This document shows, one piece after another, positions 7,905 to 29,898 of a DNA stretch of 64,000 nt (positions within the stretch are counted from its first letter, which is position 1; every line of letters begins with the position of its first letter). The stretch comes from Planctomycetota bacterium. GTDB lineage: Bacteria; Planctomycetota; SZUA-567; H5-PLA8. The notes under the pieces are model-generated. The model was not told the DNA's origin and searched no databases. It saw only the letters and a list, made by a program, of their open reading frames with translations. The position numbers and the translations under genes were made by a program. The stretch covers positions 117,201 through 181,200 of the forward strand of contig JABTUM010000001.1 in the NCBI GenBank assembly GCA_015075375.1. The letters run 5' to 3'.

Positions 7905-8185
7905 GCTTCGGCGACTACGAGTTCGCGTGCTTGGGCGGAACAGAGCGCCAGCTTGGAACCGCCAATGCGCAACACCACGTCGCCACCTTTATGGCCGCCC
8001 GCCACTTGAACGCAGGCCCCTGGAAACAAGCCCAGTTCTCCTAAGCGCCGCGCGCAAACCGGATCGCCGCATACTTCGAGCACCACCACGGTTCGCCCCA
8101 CGGTCACTTCGTTCAAAATCAGCCGTTCCGCAGGCGGCGCCACTTGGGCGCCATTCCCGCGTAGGTGCGTCACGGCCGCTTTCAT
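7901..8185 (-). CDS. second FeoA-family protein
   Basis: LNEVTVGRTVVVLEV..RLGELGLFPGACVQVAGGHKGGDVVLRIGGSKLAL is a FeoA fold. The start is trimmed to MKAAV at 8185. Confidence 0.6.
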   Translation of the reverse strand: MKAAVTHLRGNGAQVAPPAERLILNEVTVGRTVVVLEVCGDPVCARRLGELGLFPGACVQVAGGHKGGDVVLRIGGSKLALCSAQARELVVAEA

Positions 8186-8384
8186 GCGCGAAAGGACACG
8201 CGGAATCGCAGACCAGCCGTCGCGAGACGCGCCACCCAACCCTACCACCGCGCCGCGACCGGACTTTCTTGAGGCGCGAATGGAAGAGGAAGGCATGGGG
8301 CACTCCACAAGATCGGTTTGGACTGCATTACCACGAGTCTAGCTACAACTTACTTTCAACTCGAGATGCTGTCCACCGCCTCAC

Positions 8385-8401
8385 TTGAGAATAATTCTCA
8401 A
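8385..8401. promoter_or_regulatory. Fur-box-like 7-1-7 perfect palindrome upstream of the feo operon
   Basis: TTGAGAAT-A-ATTCTCAA is a perfect inverted repeat resembling the Fur consensus TGATAAT-N-ATTATCA. It lies 80-200 bp upstream of the first feo-cluster gene. Confidence 0.45.
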
Positions 8402-8596
8402 TGCAGTCCCATTAACTCTACGCTATGGAGAATCCGGGTCAAGGATATTCCCTGATCAATAGCCCTTTACCCAACCGTCGGAATCGACCTGCCCACCCTG
8501 CGGCATAAGGCCTTCCTCCTGCGGTCCATTGCGTCAGGCCGCCAGTCCGCTACCATACCGACCGGGTTCGCGGTCCTGAAGGCCTGCGGAGCCACT

Positions 8597-8673
8597 CGGG
8601 GCGTAGTTCAGCTTGGTAGAACGCCTGGTTTGGGACCAGGAGGTCGCAGGTTCGAATCCTGTCGCCCCGACCA
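8597..8673 (+). tRNA. tRNA-Pro (anticodon UGG)
   Basis: The acceptor stem CGGGGCG/CGCCCCG and the anticodon stem-loop CCTGG-TTTGGGA-CCAGG give anticodon TGG. The T-arm GGTTCGAATCC and an encoded CCA 3' end are present. Length is 77 nt. Confidence 0.9.
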
Positions 8674-8728
8674 CCCTCCCTGAAGGTAAGAGCGCCCGAC
8701 ACCGCGCCGTCTGCACCCAGCACTCCGA

Positions 8729-20513: not shown

Positions 20514-21026
20514 TTACCCCAGACTCAGCAGCCAATTTAGACCCAAGGCTCCGGTTACAGCCCAGCCTGCGTAGTGCAGCGTCGCCGCGGCGCGGTTCAA
20601 GCGTGGATGGCTTGGCCAGCGGATCGCGCAAAGACGATACAAGGCGGCCACGGCAAAGAAGAAATAAAGCAAGGGCCCCATCCGGTGGGATTGAAGAGCG
20701 CCCAAGAGGTCGCCTTGAGTCAGACGCACGAAAGACCGGCTCAGTCCGCAGCCCGGACAATCGAGGCCCACCAACCGCTGGCTTAGGCATAGCGCAGGAA
20801 TGGAATGACCCGCGATCGACAGTCCACCGCCCCCGGCTTCGTATTTAAATAGTAATGGGGTCAGAAGCAGGACCAAGCAGAAGCAGAGTATCGTGAAATG
20901 ATCGGTGCGGCTCTCGCCGCCGCCCGAATAGCGAAGCGAAAGACCCCAGAACGCCGACCGGCGCGCAGGGAGGGAATCATCCGGCACGCGCGGCTCGAGC
21001 TTTCTCGATGCATCCGTGGCAGGCAA
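20514..21026 (-). CDS. DUF2752 domain membrane protein (last gene of the Ubl operon)
   Basis: The CPGCGLSRSF motif is diagnostic of DUF2752, and hydrophobic helices are present. The annotated 5' end overlaps the E2 gene by about 50 nt, so the true start is probably internal and non-ATG. Confidence 0.45.
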   Translation of the reverse strand: MPATDASRKLEPRVPDDSLPARRSAFWGLSLRYSGGGESRTDHFTILCFCLVLLLTPLLFKYEAGGGGLSIAGHSIPALCLSQRLVGLDCPGCGLSRSFVRLTQGDLLGALQSHRMGPLLYFFFAVAALYRLCAIRWPSHPRLNRAAATLHYAGWAVTGALGLNWLLSLG

Positions 21027-21888
21027 AATCTTCCTCTCCGCTCTTCATGCGAACTTTCTTGACGTGGTCCAGACACGCGCTGGCGCCGCAAACCCGGCAC
21101 GCCACCAAGCAATCGTGGCAGCGACCGGCTTCACAGACCGCACAATGTCCCGCGTGCTCGGAGCAGACCGCTTGTTGACATGCCGCGCAGCGATAGCCGC
21201 ATTTGGCGCAGACGGATCGTTTGCAGGTCGAACAGGTGACCAGATCGCACTTCAGGCAGGTTAAGCCTCCACAAACGGGACAGCTCATCACGCAATTTTC
21301 GCACGCCACATGCAGATTCGTACACGCCTGCATTTCGCTGGGATCGCCGCGCTTGCCGCAGTTCGCGCACGTGTCGCCCACCACCGCCGAACCGTCTTCG
21401 CGCCGCCCCGTCGCCTCGCCGACCGACAGCAGCGCGGAAAAATCCGTCGTGTCCAGCGGAAGACGATCCTTGTTCTCCACGGCCCATTTGGCGGCTTCGC
21501 CATTCAGAGGGCTCTTGATGTTATAGGACTGAAAACTCAGCATCTCCGCGATCCGCACGACCAGATTGGCCAGCGACTCGCCGGCCGCCCAGTGGTCACC
21601 GATACAGATGGCGTGCGGCGCGATATTGGGATGAAAGACCGGGGTCAGCATGCGGCATTGCGGCGCCATGCGCGGATAGCTGCCCGTCAGCGTAATCTCG
21701 ATCTGAAACTGATTGCGGATCTGGAAGCCGCCGTCGAGACGCTTCTCCATGCCCGTGACCAGATACTCGAGCTGGTACTTCTCCGGCGGATTGCCCAGCG
21801 TCTTCTTGATGCGAATGCGGGAATCCTTGGTGAAGAAACTGCTGAGCTTGTCGTAATCGGCCTTGAGGCGCCGCAGCCGGACACTCAT
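20977..21888 (-). CDS. ubiquitin-conjugating enzyme (UBC/E2)-fold protein with C-terminal Cys-rich multi-CxxC extension
   Basis: The N-terminus RLRRLKADYDKL is followed by the E2 active-site block PVFHPNIAPHAICIGDHW. This is the HPN motif with a Cys 7 residues downstream, as in eukaryotic E2s. LNGEAAKW matches the E2 LNxEAAxxY motif. The C-terminal roughly 130 aa carries at least 12 CxxC pairs. The start ATG overlaps the stop of the upstream protease gene. Confidence 0.8.
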   Translation of the reverse strand: MSVRLRRLKADYDKLSSFFTKDSRIRIKKTLGNPPEKYQLEYLVTGMEKRLDGGFQIRNQFQIEITLTGSYPRMAPQCRMLTPVFHPNIAPHAICIGDHWAAGESLANLVVRIAEMLSFQSYNIKSPLNGEAAKWAVENKDRLPLDTTDFSALLSVGEATGRREDGSAVVGDTCANCGKRGDPSEMQACTNLHVACENCVMSCPVCGGLTCLKCDLVTCSTCKRSVCAKCGYRCAACQQAVCSEHAGHCAVCEAGRCHDCLVACRVCGASACLDHVKKVRMKSGEEDFACHGCIEKARAARAG

Positions 21889-23183
21889 GGCGTCTCCTTT
21901 TCGGTGAGGCTCAGCCAGCGCTCCTGCTGCCCGGCGTCGAGCAATTTCAACAAGGTCATCGTACTGATCGCGAAGCTCAGACCTTCGGCCACCTGCTTAT
22001 CTTCCGTCAACGTGTTGATTCCCACCAAATCGCCCTGCTTCGTGTACAAACCGCCGCCGCTGTTCCCCGAATTGATCGGCGTCTGAGTCTGATACAGTTC
22101 GACGCCGTGCGGCCCCCCCTCCATGCGGCGCAGGCCGGAGATCGATCCCTGCGTGTAACTCCAGCTCAAGCCCATCGGATTGCCCACCGCAAACACGTCT
22201 TCACCGATCCCCACCGGTTCCCGGGAAACCTTGATCTGTGCATAGCGCTCGAGTGCGATCACGGGGCAACTTAAAATCACCAAATCGACGTCGCCTTCGG
22301 CTTTCCACTGAATCTCGGCCTTGCTCGATTCGCTCGTGTAGAAAATGACTTCGATCTCGCCCGACTTCGCTTCGCCGATGACATGCCGGTTGGTCAGAAT
22401 GTACGCGGTGTGATCGACATGCTTGAGGATCACGCCGGAACCGTAGCTCTGCACCTCGGCCGAACCGCCCACCGCAACCACCACATTCGCCCGCATCGCG
22501 TTGCCGATGGGCGCCGGCATGCGCGCCAGGTGGTCTTCGGACGGCATGCTCTCGTAAAAGTCGTTATTGATTTTCACCAATTGCTGCTGGCGGCTGAGCT
22601 GTCCGTACAGCACGACAAAGTAAGCGATCACCAAGGCAACCGGCACAAGCGTCGCACCGACGGCCGTAGCCAGCCCAGAAATGCGGTTCTTGGGATTGTT
22701 GATCCGCAATAACGCCACGACGCCGACGCCGATCGCAGCGAACGCCATGAACATGCCCAGGACCAGAAGCTGCATATTGGCTTGGATCGCGCCCACCAGG
22801 CCCGCCAGACTCAAAATCGCCAGCGCCACGCCGGTCCAGGCCATGCGGCTGTGGCGTTCGGGAGGAGGCGGAAGAAAAGCCGCGGCCGCCGCGGCTCCCC
22901 CGGGCGACCGAGGGCGCGGAGGCGCCAACGGCGCGCTAAGGACTTCCTGTTCCGAGAGCACGATATCCGCCGGACGAGCGGGGTTATCCATGCGCACCGC
23001 TTGGTCGCAATGGTACGACGAACAACCGCGCTTATGCGCCCAGCACGTCTCGTGATGAATGCTTCCGCAGGACGGGCAGGAAATGATCAACTGGCCGGCC
23101 GTAACCGTTTCCTGGCAAAATGGACACGTATTGCCCGCATGAAACAGGCTGGCCAAAACCGGATCGGGCGTGCTTGTGGCCAT
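21885..23183 (-). CDS. membrane-anchored trypsin-like (S1/DegP-type) serine protease with N-terminal C4HC3 RING/PHD-like zinc finger
   Basis: The N-terminal CPFC-x12-CPSC-x4-H-x2-C-x6-C-x4-C finger is followed by TM helices. The protease domain has His (TNRHVIG), Asp (DVDLVIL) and Ser (GNSGGGL). The start is trimmed to MATSTPD, which overlaps the previous stop by 1 nt. Confidence 0.8.
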   Translation of the reverse strand: MATSTPDPVLASLFHAGNTCPFCQETVTAGQLIISCPSCGSIHHETCWAHKRGCSSYHCDQAVRMDNPARPADIVLSEQEVLSAPLAPPRPRSPGGAAAAAAFLPPPPERHSRMAWTGVALAILSLAGLVGAIQANMQLLVLGMFMAFAAIGVGVVALLRINNPKNRISGLATAVGATLVPVALVIAYFVVLYGQLSRQQQLVKINNDFYESMPSEDHLARMPAPIGNAMRANVVVAVGGSAEVQSYGSGVILKHVDHTAYILTNRHVIGEAKSGEIEVIFYTSESSKAEIQWKAEGDVDLVILSCPVIALERYAQIKVSREPVGIGEDVFAVGNPMGLSWSYTQGSISGLRRMEGGPHGVELYQTQTPINSGNSGGGLYTKQGDLVGINTLTEDKQVAEGLSFAISTMTLLKLLDAGQQERWLSLTEKETP

Positions 23184-23809
23184 CAATCGAATACCGCCAA
23201 CAGGATCATGATCACGATCAGCAGGCTTGCGATGCCCACCCCGCACCACAACAACGCTCTAAGCGTAGTGGGCAAGCGCCGATAGTCGACTCCCATCAAG
23301 CTCCCGCTTTGGATCAGGATCAGGCACAATACCAACCCCAAGGGCGCCAAACAGGCCGCGGCACAAAGCAGGAAAAGCATCACGGATTTGTTGCGCGCCG
23401 CCGCGTACTCGGTGCCCTCGTACGAACGGCTGCGGTACTCGTCCTTCGATATCAGATCCCGCGAGGCGAATACGGCGCCGCAGAATCGGCACTTCAGCGC
23501 TTCGGAGCGAATCTTCCGTGCGCACGATGGACACGGCTTCTCGTCTCCCCAGGCATTGGAAACCGGTTGGTCCTGATGGGAGGGTTTGATCGTTGGCGGA
23601 GCGGACTTGCACCCGTAGGCCGAACAACCGCGATTCTCGGACCAGCAATCGGCGTGGAATACAAGCGAGCAGGACGGGCAATTCAAGACCTGCTCGCCGC
23701 CCAGAATGGACGACTGGCAGATCGAACATTGCTTACCTGCCACCTCCGCGTCAGCCGAATAGACCGGCGGCTGCGGAAAGGCGGAAGCGGCGTGCGGCGA
23801 TGCAGCCAT
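23183..23809 (-). CDS. membrane protein with C4HC3 RING/PHD-like zinc finger plus zinc ribbon (candidate E3-like)
   Basis: The finger is CSIC-x12-CPSC-x4-H-x2-CW-x5-C-x4-C. A zinc ribbon CPSC..(12)..CRFCG follows, then about 3 TM helices at the C-terminus. Confidence 0.7.
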   Translation of the reverse strand: MAASPHAASAFPQPPVYSADAEVAGKQCSICQSSILGGEQVLNCPSCSLVFHADCWSENRGCSAYGCKSAPPTIKPSHQDQPVSNAWGDEKPCPSCARKIRSEALKCRFCGAVFASRDLISKDEYRSRSYEGTEYAAARNKSVMLFLLCAAACLAPLGLVLCLILIQSGSLMGVDYRRLPTTLRALLWCGVGIASLLIVIMILLAVFD

Positions 23810-23819
23810 GCCCTGAATC

Positions 23820-24512
23820 CTACCTTTCGTTCAACAATGCCACGCGAATCAGGATATGAACCAGCGTGACGGCCACCGTAAGCAATACGAGTTTCACGCC
23901 TTTCTTTTTGCCTTGAATCATCCAGACAATTCCGCAAATGCAGGCGATCCAACCGCACAGGATTCCGAAAAGAATTTCCGAGCCGCTCAGCTTTTCGTCT
24001 TCGGCCGCCTGGCGCTTCATCCGGTCCTGCCGAAAGCGCGCGGCCTTGTCGAGCAACTCGCCGCAATAGCGGCACTTGCGCGCTTCTTTCAGCACGCTTT
24101 CGCCGCAGTAGGGGCACGGCTTCATGGCCGCGGTATTCGTGCCCCCGGGTGCGCCCTGCGGAACATTGGCCGCGGGGGCGGCGGCCATCTGCAGCGCACT
24201 GGGACAGTCGGCATTCCGGCACGCGCCGTGCGCTTCGTGGCAGGCTTGGTGCATGGTTCCTTGGCACTGCGGGCAGTTCCAGACATCCTGACCCAACTCG
24301 ATCCCCACGCTGCAACCTGGACAGATGCGGCCGGCGAGGACTTTGTTGGCTTTCATGCGTTCGGGAAAGGAGGGCAGGCCGGCATCCTGCGCGGCCGCAA
24401 ACCCCACGCCGAGATTCTCCATACCGCAATTAGGGCACTTCTTCTTCGGCCCTAAAGGTCTGGCCTCCTGTCCGCACTGAGGACACGTAAAGAAACCCGG
24501 TTGCGGCATCAA
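23820..24512 (-). CDS. membrane protein with two zinc ribbons and a C4HC3 RING/PHD-like zinc finger (candidate E3-like), paralogue of 23183..23809
   Basis: The order is CPQCG..CPNCG, then CPGC-x12-CPQC-x4-H-x2-C-x6-C-x4-C, then CPYCG..CRYCG, then a TM helix. Confidence 0.7.
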   Translation of the reverse strand: MMPQPGFFTCPQCGQEARPLGPKKKCPNCGMENLGVGFAAAQDAGLPSFPERMKANKVLAGRICPGCSVGIELGQDVWNCPQCQGTMHQACHEAHGACRNADCPSALQMAAAPAANVPQGAPGGTNTAAMKPCPYCGESVLKEARKCRYCGELLDKAARFRQDRMKRQAAEDEKLSGSEILFGILCGWIACICGIVWMIQGKKKGVKLVLLTVAVTLVHILIRVALLNER

Positions 24513-24552
24513 TAGATTCTCCTGAATCGTTCCATTAGGGCACCCGTCGCTC

Positions 24553-25653
24553 TCAGGCGCCTTGGCCCTTTTCGTGATAGCGCAATACGGTCTCCCCGAT
24601 GGATACCGTATCCCCGGGTTGGAGCAGGTACTTCTCGACCTTCTTCCCGTTCACGAACACGCCCTTCTCACTGCGTTCGTCCTCTATCATGTACCGCCGG
24701 CCGGTTCGCTTCACCGAGGCATGCAGCGGCGCCACATCGGGATCCTTAAAGAGGTAGATGTCGGACTTCGGCGCCGAGCCGATTCGCATCGACTGCTTGA
24801 AGAGCACAAAATGTTTCCCGGCCAGCGGCCCCTTGAGCATCTGGAACCAGGCTTCCTTGGAAATGTTCTCGAAGATGCCGATGAACAAGCCCACGAACAA
24901 ACCCACCGCCAGCACGCCCACGCAACGGCTCATCGACGCATCGCCGGACGCGAAGTCGATCCAGCGGCTGATCGGATCGAAGAAGAGTCCGCCCAACAAT
25001 CCACCGATCAACCCGCCGACGAATCCGTTTAGGGTCAGTTGTTTGGACTTCAGCGCGATGCCCAGACCCAAGCCCGCCCCCATGGAAATGATGGCCCATG
25101 CCAGACCGCGGCCGCACATGAAGATGAAGAAGTTAATGCCCTTGATCGGAAACTCGTCCGGCTTGAATCCGCCGGGCGGAACCTGGATGTTGCTGGTGGC
25201 CACGTTGGAGGTGATGCTGAAGACGATGTCCGCCACGACGGTGGTCAGGACCGTCACCCCCAAGCCAACCCCCAATCCAACGGCGCCGCAATAGGCCGCC
25301 TGCCGGACGTTGCGATTGGCGATGCCATACATGACCCCGATCGCCAGTCCCAGTACCCCGGCTACGGGGCCGAACAGGATGTAGTCGGATACGAAGGGAA
25401 TCGCGATCTGGTCGGTCTCGTCGTTAAAGTATGGCTCGAAGGCTGCCCAGACCGCCAATGCGCCCACGCTGCCCGCCACCGCGTAGTAAAAGATGGGATT
25501 GAAATAAAGCGGCGTCTTGATTTCTGCGATAGGTTCGTCGGACTGCGGCTGCAGCGAACGCTGCAGATTGATCATGTCGTCGATGCCCGGATCTTTCAGT
25601 TCGTCGTCGGTAATAATGATATCGGCCATCGGCCACCTTCCTTCTTGTACCAT
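24553..25653 (-). CDS. polytopic membrane protein with C-terminal FHA (phosphothreonine-binding) domain
   Basis: Multiple Gly-rich TM helices are followed by the FHA motif GSAPKSDIYLFKDPDVAPLHASV..DERSEKGVFVNGKKV..GDTVSIG. Confidence 0.7.
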   Translation of the reverse strand: MVQEGRWPMADIIITDDELKDPGIDDMINLQRSLQPQSDEPIAEIKTPLYFNPIFYYAVAGSVGALAVWAAFEPYFNDETDQIAIPFVSDYILFGPVAGVLGLAIGVMYGIANRNVRQAAYCGAVGLGVGLGVTVLTTVVADIVFSITSNVATSNIQVPPGGFKPDEFPIKGINFFIFMCGRGLAWAIISMGAGLGLGIALKSKQLTLNGFVGGLIGGLLGGLFFDPISRWIDFASGDASMSRCVGVLAVGLFVGLFIGIFENISKEAWFQMLKGPLAGKHFVLFKQSMRIGSAPKSDIYLFKDPDVAPLHASVKRTGRRYMIEDERSEKGVFVNGKKVEKYLLQPGDTVSIGETVLRYHEKGQGA

Positions 25654-25684
25654 CCCGGGATCCCGGCGCGTCCCGATTCGTCCA

Positions 25685-26992
25685 CTACGGAGACTTGGTT
25701 TCCGCTTCGGTCTTCGTCTTCTCGTCCGCGCTTTCCTTGCGCTCGGGGAAAAGCGCCTGGATCAAACCCGGATGCATGCGCGCCAGCGTCTCTTTGCATT
25801 CCGGATACAACCGCACTGCGGTCTCCACCAGTTGCTTCAAATGGCCCAGTTCGGCGGGCGAAAGCGATTCGAGATCGATGGGCCTTCCGCCCACGAGCAG
25901 CAACTCGCTCAAGCGCATGACGAAGAGCATGCCGACGTACGTCTCCAGGCGATCCTGCCGGTCGGCATTTTCGCGCACGCGTCCCGACAGCGTCTGCTTC
26001 ATGCTCATCGCTTCGGACATATCTTTTCGAAACGTCTTTCGAGGTTTGTCGTACGCCAACTTCAGCGTCGCCAACTGCGTGGAGAGATCCTTGATACCTT
26101 GCTCGGCCGCCGCGGGATCTTTCTTCGCCAACGCCTGCTCGACGGATTCCACCTTGTCGCCCAATGCGGCGAAATCCTTCGAGGCCATCGCGTTCATGCC
26201 CGCGAATTCAAGCACCGAGTAAATCTCGGACTCCAAGCCCTCCAGCGCCGTGGCGCGCAGGCTGTGCATCATCAAGTTCTGCCCGAGCAGGAATCCGCAC
26301 AGAAAGAAAACCACGAGAAAGAAGAGGTGGGACAGCCCCATCGGAACGCGCGGTTCTTCGGCCGGCCGCGAGGCCGCCGCGTCGGGCGAGCGGCGTTCCT
26401 CGGCCGCGCTCCCGCCCGAAGCCTCGTGCATCGAGAACGGCTCCGCCGCGCCCGTCACCAACTTCACTTCGTCGCTCCCCACCCAGTACCGCGCCAGCGG
26501 CAGGCAGTTCCCGCGGACCCAGGCGAAGCAGCCCTCTTCTTTGCGCTTCGTCTCGATCACCACCGCCACATGGAAGGGCGCATTGAAGTAATTTTCCTGG
26601 ATGAACATATCCATCTTGGAAAGAAAGACGCCGAAACCTGGGTGCGTGTGATACCAGCCGACGATCTTGCGGTCCGAATATTGCTTATCGAAAATGCCGT
26701 AAATATGTTGCCACGCCTGATGCGTAAGGGTCACCTGAGCGCCGTAGTTCTTGGTGTCTTCGCCTTCGATCACGGCGGTCACGTACAGGAATGGGCCTTG
26801 CGCATCGCGCTTCACGTCGCCCACCAGCACGCCCATGATCTCTACTTCGTCCGTCGTCGCCGCGTGCGCCTTCATGCGACGATAGGCTTCGGGCGAAAAG
26901 CAGACGCGATACTCGGTCTCGATTTTGGCCGGAAAGGCTCCTTCGGGAGCATCTTTCTTCTCGACCTGCCGATAGTCCAACGTGCCGGCCAT
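25685..26992 (-). CDS. JAB/MPN (JAMM) metalloprotease fused to a TM helix and long coiled-coil C-terminal region (candidate deubiquitinase/Ubl-processing peptidase)
   Basis: The conserved Glu (EVEIMGVLVGD) and the JAMM motif HTHPGFGVFLSKMD (H-x-H-x7-S-x2-D) are both present. The start is trimmed to MAGTLDYRQ, which overlaps the E1 3' end by about 20 nt. Confidence 0.8.
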   Translation of the reverse strand: MAGTLDYRQVEKKDAPEGAFPAKIETEYRVCFSPEAYRRMKAHAATTDEVEIMGVLVGDVKRDAQGPFLYVTAVIEGEDTKNYGAQVTLTHQAWQHIYGIFDKQYSDRKIVGWYHTHPGFGVFLSKMDMFIQENYFNAPFHVAVVIETKRKEEGCFAWVRGNCLPLARYWVGSDEVKLVTGAAEPFSMHEASGGSAAEERRSPDAAASRPAEEPRVPMGLSHLFFLVVFFLCGFLLGQNLMMHSLRATALEGLESEIYSVLEFAGMNAMASKDFAALGDKVESVEQALAKKDPAAAEQGIKDLSTQLATLKLAYDKPRKTFRKDMSEAMSMKQTLSGRVRENADRQDRLETYVGMLFVMRLSELLLVGGRPIDLESLSPAELGHLKQLVETAVRLYPECKETLARMHPGLIQALFPERKESADEKTKTEAETKSP

Positions 26993-27009
26993 ACCGCTGT
27001 TCCTTGCCG

Positions 27010-28182
27010 TTAGTTCGCCAAATCGCCCAAGACTTCGCCCGCATCCCCATCGAATAAGTACGAAATCGTGCGCTCCCCGTTGCGCGCGGTGACCACGTCG
27101 TACGGCGGAACGCCCCACGCGGCCATGCTCATGTCTTCATGCCCCGGCTCGAGGCCCAAGGTCGACGTGGTCTCCGGCGCGCGCATCTGGCCGCACTTGG
27201 GGCAACGCCCTTCCGCTTCGGTCACCTTACCCAACGAGCGAAAACACGCCTCCGTCTCGCCGCAAGCCGCGCAGCTAAGCCCGGTGACAAGATCGCGCGC
27301 AAGCTGCAGCACCGTCTCCGGCCCCAGCGCGCTGCGGGCGCGTTCGAGCAGCGCGCCGAGGGTCACCTCCGCCACGCCCCCGCCCAACGGTTCCAGTTCG
27401 GCAAAGCGCTCGTGCGCAAAGCACTCGGGCTTGCGCGTATACGTCACCAGGTAGGACTCGCCCGCCAGACCGTTGAACACGAAACCGCGACCGGCGATCG
27501 TCTCCAGTCCGTGGAGCAGCTTGACGGCCTCCTGCATCTGGAAGCCCGCGATGATGCTGGCCGTCGTCGGCGTGGTCGGTACTTTTCCTTCCTGAAGTTG
27601 TTCGCGCGTCAGCAGAGCGCACGAACGGCGGCTCTCGAGCATCTTCCAGTCGGTCTCGTTCATCGTGCACTCGTAGCACGGCCCATCCGGTGCAAAGACG
27701 CGCGCGACACCGTTCAGCACCTCGATCGCTCCGTCGATCCAGGTCTTGCCGGCAAAGAGGCTGGAACCGTTGATCGCGACTCGTGCTTCGCGGTTGTCGA
27801 GCCCGCCCAGGATCACATCGGCCCAAAAATAGACGCCCAGGCCCAGATCGTGGACCACGTTGCCTACGAACGGCTTCGCTTTGATGAGCGGATACAGTTC
27901 GCGCGCTGCGCGGCAGGCCACCTCGGCCTTGGGCTGCCCGCGGTCTGATTCTCTAAAGAGCGGCGAGCGCGTGAGATTGGAAAGCTCGATCCGGTCCATA
28001 TCCGCGACGAGGACGCGGCCGATGCCGAACAGCGCACAGTTCTTGACAAGCTCGTTGCCCAGCGCACCGGCGCCAATCACCAGCACCTTTGCGCGGCTCA
28101 GGCGCTCCTGCTCCCACCATGAAATGAGTTCGAAACGGCTGAAGCGGCTGTCGGCCGAGTCGTCCAGATTGACTTTGATCAA
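27010..28182 (-). CDS. E1-like ubiquitin-activating enzyme (ThiF/MoeB/HesA superfamily) with C-terminal zinc-ribbon extension
   Basis: The Rossmann/adenylation motif is RFSRFELISWWEQERLSRAKVLVIGAGALGNELVKNCALFGIGRVLVADMDRIELSNLTRSPLF. CxxC pairs (GPCYEC, CAACGE..CPKCG) are present. The gene apparently starts at a TTG. Confidence 0.8.
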   Translation of the reverse strand: MIKVNLDDSADSRFSRFELISWWEQERLSRAKVLVIGAGALGNELVKNCALFGIGRVLVADMDRIELSNLTRSPLFRESDRGQPKAEVACRAARELYPLIKAKPFVGNVVHDLGLGVYFWADVILGGLDNREARVAINGSSLFAGKTWIDGAIEVLNGVARVFAPDGPCYECTMNETDWKMLESRRSCALLTREQLQEGKVPTTPTTASIIAGFQMQEAVKLLHGLETIAGRGFVFNGLAGESYLVTYTRKPECFAHERFAELEPLGGGVAEVTLGALLERARSALGPETVLQLARDLVTGLSCAACGETEACFRSLGKVTEAEGRCPKCGQMRAPETTSTLGLEPGHEDMSMAAWGVPPYDVVTARNGERTISYLFDGDAGEVLGDLAN

Positions 28183-28206
28183 GCCGCCAGCCTCCCAAGG
28201 CCGCGC

Positions 28207-28497
28207 CTAGACGCGCGCGCCGCCCGCCGTAATCTCCGGCTGCAGACGCAACACATCTCCTTCACGGATGCCGGCCTGGGTCAGCGTCTCCTCATCGAGC
28301 AACTGCCGCCCGCTGGCTTTATGGTGAAACTTGTAACTCATCAACTGTCCGTCCGGACTGTGGCGCGGAAGGTTCATACGATCCACCAGCAGCACGATGA
28401 TGCGATTGACCGACGCTTGGCCCGGCAGGCTGACCACGGCCTTCTTGTTGCCGGTCGCGTCCCAGACTTCCACACTGATGTTGCCTGCATCGCTCAC
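28207..28497 (-). CDS. ubiquitin-like beta-grasp protein ending in GG followed by a 3-residue tail (precursor-like)
   Basis: The 96-aa protein ends ..DVLRLQPEITAGG-ARV-stop. Its length and hydrophobic periodicity (ISVEVWDATGNKKAVVSL..) fit a beta-grasp fold. It lies immediately upstream of the E1. Its start ATG overlaps the stop of the previous gene (ATGA). Confidence 0.65.
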   Translation of the reverse strand: MSDAGNISVEVWDATGNKKAVVSLPGQASVNRIIVLLVDRMNLPRHSPDGQLMSYKFHHKASGRQLLDEETLTQAGIREGDVLRLQPEITAGGARV

Positions 28498-29537
28498 GAA
28501 CCGACCTCCCGGCGCCTGGCCAGCGCCTTGTCCAGATCGCCTTCGATGGAACCGTCGAGCAGGTACCAGCGCCCTTCGTGGCGTATGAACGCCTTGCGTA
28601 CGACCACATCTTCCTTCTGCTGGAAAATCAGGATCAGGATTACCGCGATCCAGAGGCTCAGCAGGATGCTAAGCATCAGGAGGCTGTTGTAGGTGGTCAA
28701 TTTGAGGTTCGCCTCGACCACCGCCACCCCGTCGGTTTCCGGAAGAATGACGCGCACCTTATTGAGCTGGTAGTAGCGCACCCAATTGTTCTTACCCTGG
28801 AAGATCTCTTTCCAATAGGCGGCATACGATTTCACGTCCGAAAACGGTCTTCGCTGTGGGTGATTGGGAATCTTCGGATTCTTGAAGGCAATCGACGGCG
28901 GATGCTCCGCTTGTCGCGCCGGCGGAATCAACGCGGCGAACGCCTTTCCGGTACGACCCGTCTTTACCGCCATGAAGAAGCGCTTGTACGCCTGTATCGG
29001 GCCTTCGGACTCCTGCAGGTGCATCGCATTGCGGTCGTTGAAAAACGAAACGAGCGTCGGGATGCCGAAACAGAGTCCCAATATGATCCCAAATGCCAGC
29101 GCAGGCTCGCCGTTACGCGACATCGCTCCGAATGCCAGCAGCGCCAGGCTCGCAAGAGTCAGTACGCCCAGCGCGATGGTCTTGCCCGACCACATGCCGC
29201 CACGCAACACGTCGTCCTGAGCCGGAGAATGCCGAGCCAACTCGCCACGAATCAGATCCAGCGCCTTCGCCAGTTCCTCGTTCGACATGGCCGTCGAAGC
29301 CAGGGACTCGCCGCAATGAGGGCACCTGCGGGCGCCGGCGGGAATGGGCTCCGCGCAGGCAGGGCAGGAAATCGTGCCGGCGTTGGGCGGAGCGGTCGGT
29401 GCATGAATCGGCGGTACGACAGGAGCTTCCGTCGCCAGAATCTGCGCGCCGCAGACTTGGCAGGTAACCGGCAGCCCTGCCAGCTCATCCTTGACGCGAA
29501 ACGTTTTCCCGCACGTACATTGGACCGAAATAGGCAT
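28494..29537 (-). CDS. membrane protein with N-terminal tandem zinc ribbons (first gene of the Ubl operon)
   Basis: The N-terminus has CTCG..CQVCG and CPAC..CPHCG ribbons. The second resembles ribbons in the two RING-like membrane proteins. Two TM helices follow. The start is trimmed to the ATG at 29537 (MPISVQ). Confidence 0.55.
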   Translation of the reverse strand: MPISVQCTCGKTFRVKDELAGLPVTCQVCGAQILATEAPVVPPIHAPTAPPNAGTISCPACAEPIPAGARRCPHCGESLASTAMSNEELAKALDLIRGELARHSPAQDDVLRGGMWSGKTIALGVLTLASLALLAFGAMSRNGEPALAFGIILGLCFGIPTLVSFFNDRNAMHLQESEGPIQAYKRFFMAVKTGRTGKAFAALIPPARQAEHPPSIAFKNPKIPNHPQRRPFSDVKSYAAYWKEIFQGKNNWVRYYQLNKVRVILPETDGVAVVEANLKLTTYNSLLMLSILLSLWIAVILILIFQQKEDVVVRKAFIRHEGRWYLLDGSIEGDLDKALARRREVGS

Positions 29538-29898
29538 TCGCCGCCGTCCTGTATGGAATCCGTTCAAGCACTATAAAATTTGTGTGCGGCCATGCTATAG
29601 GACGTATAGGTAGTAGCAAGAGCATCCGACTTCACATGTAAGCAAAGCACCGTTTGCATCCAGCCTCGACTGCACACGTGAAGGCTTGCCGCAGCTTGAA
29701 GAAGTAGGTCCCGAATCAAGCCGTCGGCACAGCTCGCAAAATTATTATGGGATTGTCTCGCCCGCCGCGACAAGTATCTGCCTTTCGAACCGATTCGCGC
29801 ACGCAAGGCCCGCAGACGGTCATTTTCGCGCGTGAGCCCTTTCCTGTTTTTCAGGATGTGATAGGTTTCCGGAATCAAAAATTAAAAGGAGTTCCCTT

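Follow-up and report, generated by a model that had tools for sequence, protein, structure and literature searches.

Probable C-terminal propeptide of a ubiquitin-like protein and predicted independent start of its in-frame E1 gene in a Planctomycetota operon

The window analysed here, a 64,000-nt stretch of a Planctomycetota contig, carries an operon that opens with a zinc-ribbon/TM gene and continues with a ubiquitin-like protein (Ubl), a ThiF-type E1, a JAB/JAMM metallopeptidase, an FHA protein, three RING proteins, a UBC-type E2 and a DUF2752 gene, an order from Ubl onwards that is conserved in Planctomycetota (Table 1). The genes for the Ubl, E1, JAB, three Prok-RING_1 proteins and UQ_con E2 all occupy the same strand, within 20977..28497. 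This five-component gene order is shared by two relatives (L081/L082) and by most of 44 full-length loci, the order of FHA and RING genes between JAB and E2 is conserved across loci, and a zinc-ribbon/TM gene likewise precedes the Ubl in L081 and L086-L088. JAB adjoins E1 in 62 of the 63 loci with enough sequence, and an E2 occupies the equivalent position in L081/L082 and in 29 of the 44 loci whose sequence extends 7.5 kb or more downstream. The E2, the operon's last enzymatic step, carries an HPN...C motif, after which its C-terminal half is rich in cysteine, and the JAMM motif HxHx7Sx2D is intact in the JAB translation (HTHPGFGVFLSKMD, also given as GWYHTHPGFGVFLSKMD). For JAB, the longest ORF (GTG at 27118, overlapping E1 by 109 nt) was dropped for the ATG at 26992, 17 nt past the E1 TAA. 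No NCBIfam model reached its cutoff. In PADLOC, Ubl and E2 drew no match, and the E1 core and the JAB domain gave only weak partial ones (best E=7e-11, across 120 residues). We found no biochemical tests of the Planctomycetota Ubl-E1-JAB-RING-E2 operon type in the literature.

Table 1. Features of the operon and of the Ubl-E1 junction, in window coordinates
Feature	Position	Strand	Details and basis
Zinc-ribbon/TM protein, operon's first gene	28494..29567	(-)	357 aa; Pfam zinc-ribbon matches
Ubl precursor gene	28207..28497	(-)	96 aa + TAG; GTG start at 28497; ORF list and sequence
Invariant motif Q86-P-E-I-T-A-G92, codons	28222..28242	(-)	conservation in homologues and loci
Gly92 codon, probable mature E1-activated C-terminus	28224..28222	(-)	
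Tail codons G93-A-R-V, unconserved probable propeptide	28210..28221	(-)	
TAG stop of Ubl	28207..28209	(-)	sequence; kept in the four closest relatives
Spacer between Ubl and E1, 24 nt	28183..28206	(-)	gcgcggccttGGGAGGctggcggc
Shine-Dalgarno-like GGGAGG	28196..28191	(-)	8 nt ahead of TTG
E1 start codon TTG	28182..28180	(-)	sequence and orthologous start positions
E1 gene, ThiF family	27010..28182	(-)	390 aa; Pfam PF00899, E=1e-47
JAB/JAMM metallopeptidase gene	25685..26992	(-)	435 aa; Pfam JAB PF01398, E=8e-14
FHA-TM protein	24553..25653	(-)	Pfam
Prok-RING_1 membrane protein	23820..24512	(-)	Pfam
Prok-RING_1 membrane protein	23183..23809	(-)	Pfam
Prok-RING_1-trypsin protein (Trypsin_2 domain)	21885..23249	(-)	Pfam
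UBC-type E2 gene	20977..21888	(-)	303 aa; Pfam UQ_con PF00179, E=6.6e-11

The GTG start of the Ubl gene shares four nucleotides (GTGA) with the stop of the preceding zinc-ribbon/TM gene. Its product matches the Pfam family YukD (PF08817; 38.6 bits against a gathering cutoff of 27), and its AlphaFold2 model (pLDDT 85) is a beta-grasp with the order strand-strand-helix-strand-strand. The known fold closest to the model is that of Caldiarchaeum ubiquitin in a structure with its Rpn11 homologue (6fno_D), followed by SUMO, ubiquitin, NEDD8 and BilA (8tyx); with E<=0.001 there are 438 PDB fold matches, and the best 50 of these are all ubiquitin, SUMO, NEDD8, ubiquitin variants, Caldiarchaeum ubiquitin or BilA. 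Database searches returned at least about 2300 homologues of the Ubl and at least about 3400 of the E1. The Ubl alignment profile, searched against PDB sequences, gave nothing meaningful (a chance FabH match at E=0.05), so the equivalence of the Ubl and ubiquitin C-termini cannot be set from sequence.

The original prediction read the Ubl C-terminus as AGG-ARV before a TAG stop, and those letters are confirmed: the chain ends ...LRLQPEITAGGARV, followed by TAG (28209..28207, minus strand). We based tail statistics on the best 120 of the at least about 2300 Ubl homologues and on 75 orthologous genome loci, which together with the window's own operon make up the 76 operons analysed. The heptapeptide QPEITAG, ending in Gly92, is kept in all 120 homologues and all 76 operons. 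Beyond it, conservation stops—among the 120 homologues, ITAG is followed by glycine (28), alanine (27), arginine (21), the end of the chain (20) or serine (16), and in some relatives by K, V, T, L, C or N. Tails in the homologous proteins span 0-33 aa (median 4), and those in the genome loci reach 144 aa. Even among near-identical relatives the four tail codons carry two amino-acid changes, with synonymous changes only in the Ubl and E1 codons on either side. In the AlphaFold2 model, residues 93-96 have pLDDT <50. On these patterns, the window's Ubl is very probably made as a precursor that has to lose its tail before the E1 can activate it.

Where that tail begins is a matter of one residue. 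The original prediction placed processing after a di-glycine, with a three-residue tail; the idea of a tailed precursor holds up, and the di-glycine boundary does not, given that QPEITAG is invariant and position 93 varies. A mature end at G92-G93, with ARV as the propeptide, agrees with the literal AGG-ARV of the window, with glycine being joint commonest at position 93 (28/120 homologues; 19/75 loci) and with the GG end of most characterised Ubls (PMC5654768). With the last strand of the AlphaFold2 model stopping at residue 89, the place of ubiquitin G76 could be taken by G92 or by G93. Yet position 93 is unconserved, and the chain ends exactly at G92 in 20 of the 120 homologues (17%) and 9 of the 75 loci (12%), which means that the conserved E1 must be able to work with a chain ending at Gly92. 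The conserved C-terminal glycine expected of a conjugatable Ubl is thus present as the invariant Gly92; the conserved end is Ala-Gly, not the canonical di-glycine. Di-glycine is usual but not obligatory among Ubls, BilA being a single-Gly case that the JAB enzyme BilC cuts between Gly97 and Ala98 (PMC10557695). We consider the di-glycine end unlikely. Since conservation stops at G92 and position 93 varies, the propeptide is likely GARV (4 aa) rather than ARV, with Gly92 as the residue that would be activated.

A tail could also simply be kept, if the Ubl were a YukD-like adaptor whose C-terminal glycine is never activated. YukD is indeed its best Pfam match, and the Bacillus subtilis protein is reported as not conjugated (PMC1779556). 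What such an adaptor would leave unexplained is an invariant heptapeptide ending in glycine with everything past it free to vary, and a fold nearest to conjugated modifiers of the ubiquitin/SUMO type. Linkage of the gene to those of the E1, JAB, RING and E2 proteins is, moreover, strict, and type VII secretion/ESX genes (FtsK-like ATPase, ESAT-6/WXG100) were found neither in the window's operon nor in annotated relatives. An adaptor role is, on this evidence, very improbable.

As for the enzyme that would remove the tail, the operon's JAB/JAMM protein, already presumed to be the processor in the original prediction, remains the natural candidate for both trimming and deconjugation by analogy with the Caldiarchaeum and Bil systems, with an intact motif and a gene adjacent to E1. 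The Caldiarchaeum Rpn11 homologue removes a 9-aa propeptide from ubiquitin, and E1 cannot act on ubiquitin that has kept it (PMC5654768). Nevertheless, JAB also accompanies tail-less Ubls (7 of 7), and finding it in an operon therefore does not point specifically to tail trimming. This retention without a tail would equally suit cleavage by another protease, for example a housekeeping carboxypeptidase or the operon's RING-trypsin-like protein, whose Trypsin_2 domain belongs to a conserved operon member. To our knowledge, S1-type proteases are not known to cut Ubls after glycine in such operons. The tested precedents for post-Gly cuts there are, by contrast, all JAMM enzymes (PMC5654768, PMC10557695), and a protease other than JAB seems to us quite unlikely.

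The second feature of the junction is the shared reading frame. As the original prediction stated, the E1 TTG lies 24 nt past the Ubl TAG and in the frame of the Ubl, and no further stop falls between them. At the window's composition, eight codons lack a stop with a probability of 0.76, which, multiplied by a one-in-three chance of sharing the frame, gives such a layout about 25% of the time (~0.25). Whether the arrangement is conserved could be read from the aligned orthologous operons: E1 is in frame with the Ubl in only 14 of 75 loci (19%), fewer than the one-third expected by chance, and outside it in the other 61 (+1 in 19, +2 in 42), with the two genes anywhere between overlapping by 55 nt and lying about 500 nt apart, the frame-shifted and widely spaced pattern that the original prediction had named as speaking against it.

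The in-frame layout is, as judged from these alignments, a chance product of ordinary gene packing. The commonest arrangement is an ATGA/GTGA overlap that puts E1 in the +2 frame, and the E1 start codon sits 1 nt ahead of the Ubl TGA in 26 of the 76 operons, the window's not being among the 26. E1 starts capable of such overlap occur in 35 of 66 tailed loci and in 0 of 9 tail-less ones (Fisher p=0.003). Because Ubl stop and E1 start are so tightly packed and often overlap, the Ubl frame in many cases continues for a few arbitrary codons beyond the glycine.

The E1 start itself appears sound, since a Shine-Dalgarno-like GGAGG lies upstream and the TTG agrees with orthologous start positions. 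The GGGAGG in the spacer is conserved among close relatives, and the TTG sits 12 residues ahead of the conserved E1 motif RFSRFELI(S/G)WW, where orthologous starts lie 11-16 ahead. Start codons at the homologous position in 74 orthologues are GTG (34), ATG (27) and TTG (13), and no conserved residues were found upstream of the TTG among the aligned orthologues. The comparison thus bears out the plainer option in the original prediction, that of an ordinary non-ATG start: E1, to judge by its sequence context, is initiated normally and independently at TTG 28182.

The other option was stop-codon readthrough, in which a programmed bypass of the TAG would give a functional Ubl-E1 fusion, perhaps split later by JAB. 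In its favour, the two genes share a frame with one stop and an open eight-codon linker, and a fusion is tolerated in a relative that naturally encodes one (P0194/L085, with neither stop nor start codon between the two parts). TAG is also somewhat over-represented in frame: the 76 operons, the window's included, have 12 TAG stops, of which 7 are in frame, and these cases are phylogenetically non-independent. We do not take this enrichment as a signal: the ATGA overlap biases TGA counts towards the +2 frame, and the sample is small and includes some close relatives. Against readthrough stand the below-chance frame counts, the unrelated linker peptides of the in-frame loci and RNA folding around the stop that resembles shuffled sequence (MFE z=-1.0), with no structure past the TAG. 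No suppressor tRNA was found in the 64-kb window, whose sole tRNA is tRNA-Pro, and a good Shine-Dalgarno sequence with a positionally conserved start would suffice for independent initiation. Programmed readthrough is extremely unlikely.

Taken together, we favour, with a probability of roughly three in four, a short-tailed precursor clipped after Gly92, likely by the JAMM enzyme, and an E1 translated independently from its TTG, with the shared frame coincidental. The Ubl would be made with a disposable, unconstrained GARV after QPEITAG92, and cleavage behind Gly92 would take off that tail, with the JAMM protein encoded two genes downstream as the most likely enzyme. The E1, translated on its own from TTG 28182, presumably by means of GGAGG in the 24-nt spacer, would then adenylate Gly92 and pass the Ubl, in what we infer to be a thioester cascade, on to the UBC-type E2 and the RING proteins of the operon.

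Natural fusions invite a broader reading. Besides the Ubl-E1 fusion, four loci (L019, L024, L032 and L036) encode Ubl-ZnR-TM fusions, and anything encoded past the conserved glycine is evidently tolerated. It is conceivable, if on balance doubtful, that all sequence past ITAG—tails, ZnR-TM and E1 alike—is cargo or propeptide removable by JAB, which would make JAB maturation an obligatory and possibly regulated gate, with the operon's FHA protein as one conceivable regulator. If so, an occasional readthrough product of the window's TAG would be processed back into Ubl and E1. Eukaryotic ubiquitin is made only as fusions: poly-ubiquitin, ubiquitin-L40, and ubiquitin-S27a with its zinc ribbon. 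JAB-gated maturation of everything past ITAG would be a parallel to these.

For annotation, the Ubl and E1 genes should neither be merged nor flagged as recoded, and TTG 28182 stands as the E1 start. The Ubl is best described as a probable precursor with Gly92 as its likely reactive residue and an Ala-Gly end, which matters for the design of constructs and for proteomics of conjugation remnants. The complete E1/E2/RING/JAMM/Ubl system is very widespread in Planctomycetota and neighbouring phyla, and the clean conservation boundary, together with the natural fusions, leads to a simple prediction for its first biochemical step.

Prokaryotic operons of E1, E2, RING, JAB and Ubl genes were reportedly predicted by Burroughs, Iyer and Aravind in 2011 (in Mol Biosyst 7:2261), and the Pfam family Prok-RING_1 is said to stem from the same work. 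The window's operon has the domain inventory of the operons reportedly predicted there. A review citing the 2011 study notes operons akin to that of Caldiarchaeum in Planctomycetes and calls them uncharacterised (PMC4197634).

The closest studied counterpart is the operon of Candidatus Caldiarchaeum subterraneum, which like the window's combines genes for a Ubl, a ThiF-type E1, a UBC-type E2, one or more RING proteins and a JAMM enzyme (Hennell James et al. 2017, PMC5654768). Its ubiquitin gene specifies a short propeptide at the C-terminus, as the window's Ubl gene probably does. The window's system differs in being bacterial and known from genes, in having a YukD-like Ubl that ends in Ala-Gly instead of Gly-Gly, and in adding an FHA-TM protein, three TM-bearing Prok-RING_1 proteins (one trypsin-fused) and DUF2752. 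A second counterpart is the BilABCD anti-phage system, where a bacterial Ubl is pre-processed by a JAB DUB to a single glycine before E1 and E2 act (Chambers et al., PMC10557695); the window's Ubl has the BilA-BilC structure 8tyx among its best fold matches. In PADLOC, the window's operon did not reach the system-specific models of BilABCD or CBASS Cap2-Cap3, and where Bil has a diverged CEHH-type E2 and a multidomain E1 (PMC10557695), the window has a eukaryote-type UQ_con E2 and RING proteins. Finally, YukD/EsaB (PF08817) resembles the window's Ubl in above-threshold profile similarity and beta-grasp fold, and is described as associated with ESX/type VII secretion genes (PMC1779556). The window's Ubl, unlike these proteins, stands outside an ESX/type VII context and combines a conserved C-terminal glycine with a dedicated E1, E2 and JAB.

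Re-reading of the ORFs and spacer bore out the literal sequence description in the original prediction, which concerned the junction between the ubiquitin-like protein (Ubl) precursor and its ThiF-family E1—the E1 TTG lies in the same frame as Ubl, with zero stops between the Ubl TAG and that TTG. Taken by itself, this layout is unremarkable, having a chance of ~0.25 (1/3 for the frame × 0.76 for no stop in eight codons at local composition). The Ubl GTG start and the stop codon of the preceding gene overlap (GTGA). Two readings of the junction had been offered, namely stop-codon readthrough yielding a Ubl-E1 fusion, or E1 translation from a non-ATG start. Among 75 orthologous loci, E1 is in frame with Ubl in only 14, at +1 in 19, and at +2 in 42, such that conservation of the in-frame arrangement gave way to a frame-shifted E1 in 61/75; in-frame E1 is significantly rarer than one third of loci (p=0.007) because of ATGA overlaps. 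In the ten other loci with a single stop and in-frame layout, the linker peptides are unrelated. Predicted folding of the RNA around the Ubl stop is no stronger than in shuffled sequences (z=-1.0), and no suppressor tRNA is encoded within the window; together, these results argue against the readthrough fusion.

When the E1 frames of all loci were aligned starting from the upstream stop, conservation began 11-16 residues ahead of RFSRFELI(S/G)WW, where every orthologue has an ATG, GTG, or TTG. GTG (34) and TTG (13) together outnumber ATG (27) at this position. The window's TTG falls 12 residues ahead of the motif with nothing conserved upstream, and a GGAGG lies 8 nt before it; GGAGG, TAG, and TTG are all kept in the closest relatives. 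Given that E1 is frame-shifted in most orthologues, an outcome that the original prediction itself had listed as refuting, readthrough is not a selected feature, and the second reading, a non-ATG E1 start, is the correct one.

The Ubl C-terminus was revised. It had been described as a di-glycine followed by a three-residue tail, ARV; instead, the heptapeptide QPEITAG is identical in 120/120 best homologues, 20 of which end at its glycine (Gly92), and the residue that follows in the rest is variable (Gly in 28, Ala in 27, Arg in 21, Ser in 16, otherwise other residues). Tails, where present, span 1-33 residues and are mutually dissimilar, and the orthologous loci repeat the pattern (9/75 end at Gly; longest tail, 144 aa), with the alignment invariant up to G92 and unalignable beyond. 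Over a 120-nt junction compared between the window and its near-identical relatives (L001, L086-L088), amino-acid differences are confined to the four tail codons (R95P, V96F), with nothing but synonymous changes in the Ubl and E1 codons on either side. Because of this invariance to G92, the free variation after it, and the tail-less orthologues, the functional boundary likely falls after Gly92, making the conserved end Ala-Gly and the propeptide GARV rather than ARV; G93 would most simply be the first tail residue. AlphaFold2 confidently models Ubl with a beta-grasp fold (pLDDT 85, < 50 for residues 93-96), and the best PDB matches of the model are Caldiarchaeum ubiquitin bound to an Rpn11 homologue, followed by SUMO, Ub, NEDD8, and the bacterial BilA-BilC complex. 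The structure by itself does not distinguish G92 from G93, and the boundary argument draws on conservation and the tail-less orthologues.

Where might such tails come from? The E1 start codon lies 1 nt ahead of the Ubl TGA (ATGA or GTGA) in 26 of the 76 operons analysed, and further loci have overlaps of 8-55 nt. Overlap-capable E1 starts occur in 35/66 tailed loci vs 0/9 tail-less loci (Fisher p=0.003). This tight packing, with overlap starts confined to tailed loci, suggests that the tails are a side effect of operon compaction, in which the Ubl frame would carry on through the ribosome-binding site and start of E1 to the first stop it meets. In seven loci (L031, L045, L057, L059, L062, L064, L078), ~400-510 nt separate the Ubl stop from the E1 start; this 0.4-0.5-kb gap could leave room for an extra small gene, perhaps a free-standing zinc-ribbon/transmembrane (ZnR-TM) module.

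Two kinds of natural fusion were found. At L019, L024, L032, and L036, the Ubl frame runs on for 131-144 residues into a ZnR-TM module, resembling eukaryotic ubiquitin-S27a, a fusion to a zinc-ribbon ribosomal protein. In these Isosphaeraceae-like genomes, the extension after ITAG comprises a CPFCGEWILAVARKCRYC zinc ribbon and two TM helices (L019 at ~8001-8680), and L037 and L049 carry shortened or frame-broken forms. Locus L085 (1283-2749) encodes a 488-aa Ubl-E1 fusion, P0194, with YukD and ThiF domains, present on two Logan contigs; its junction reads ...QPEITAG-ATSAPLVVDPDAQDH-RFSRFELI..., and the DNA between QPEITAG and the E1 core contains no stop and no ATG, GTG, or TTG. The usual JAB, FHA, RING, and trypsin genes follow. 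The existence of ZnR-TM and E1 fusions shows that the family tolerates anything downstream of the conserved glycine, and such fusions would be sensible only if the chain were cut after it.

By its domain matches, the operon is a complete predicted Ubl/E1/E2/RING/JAMM set: a YukD-like Ubl (Pfam PF08817, 38.6 bits), a ThiF-family E1 (Pfam, E=1e-47), and a JAB/MPN peptidase (Pfam) containing HTHPGFGVFLSKMD, an intact HxHx7Sx2D JAMM motif, then, on the same strand, Pfam-assigned FHA-TM, two Prok-RING_1 membrane proteins, Prok-RING_1-trypsin, E2, and DUF2752.

Features of the window at and around the Ubl operon
Feature	Position	Strand	Remark
Zinc-ribbon/TM protein	28494..29567	-	upstream of Ubl
Ubl ORF	28207..28497	-	96 aa, end ...DVLRLQPEITAGGARV
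Ubl stop TAG	28209..28207	-	sequence
Ubl-E1 spacer	24 nt right after TAG	-	sequence gcgcggccttGGGAGGctggcggc
E1 ORF	27010..28182	-	390 aa, TTG start 28182..28180
FHA, three Prok-RING_1 proteins	21885..25653	-	part of operon
UQ_con-type E2	20977..21888	-	E=6.6e-11, HPN...C motif
DUF2752 protein	20514..21026	-	part of operon
tRNA-Pro (TGG)	8597..8673	+	sole tRNA gene of window

The JAB gene most likely starts at ATG 26992 (435 aa), which is preceded by AAGGAA and lies 17 nt past the E1 TAA; GTG 27118, where the mechanical ORF (477 aa) starts with a 109-nt overlap with E1, was rejected in its favour. In the E2, the UQ_con core (HPNIAPHAIC) is followed by a ~150-aa C-terminal half in which CxxC pairs abound (8 or more). 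This gene order also occurs in Planctomycetota, some Riflebacteria, Victivallales, and other MAGs. Where the downstream sequence reached 7.5 kb or more (44 loci), E1, JAB, and FHA were found in 44/44, RING genes in 36-41, and an E2 within reach in 29 (tblastn); L083 and L084 showed no apparent UQ_con E2 within 10 kb, though Ubl, E1, JAB, FHA, RING, and trypsin genes are there. All three Prok-RING_1 proteins have TM segments, one being fused to a trypsin-like protease, and the N-terminal half of the FHA protein is multi-TM; along with DUF2752, these features point to a ubiquitylation system that is associated with the membrane and possibly under phospho-regulation.

In the mechanism that we propose, JAB would trim GARV to expose Gly92, which E1 would adenylate and then thioesterify; Ubl would pass to E2 and on to targets with the membrane-anchored RING proteins, and JAB may additionally deconjugate. 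E1 has a Cys within its crossover-loop motif RRSCALLTR, which all four homologues compared retain. JAB is present in 7/7 tail-less Ubl loci, and thus tail trimming cannot be its sole role. Precedents exist for such processing: Caldiarchaeum Rpn11 removes a 9-aa propeptide, uncut pro-ubiquitin being refractory to E1 (PMC5654768), and BilC cuts BilA between Gly97 and Ala98 (PMC10557695).

The window's operon, which as a whole merits more attention than the Ubl/E1 junction, is neither a member of Bil or CBASS nor a type VII secretion YukD locus. Operons of its type in Planctomycetes are, according to a review that refers to Burroughs et al. 2011, uncharacterised relatives of the Caldiarchaeum operon (PMC4197634). 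A tailed Ubl precursor adjoining its E1 is an already known kind of arrangement; modestly new are the Ala-Gly terminus, tails that run on freely and are linked to gene overlap, and naturally occurring fusions of Ubl to ZnR-TM and to E1.
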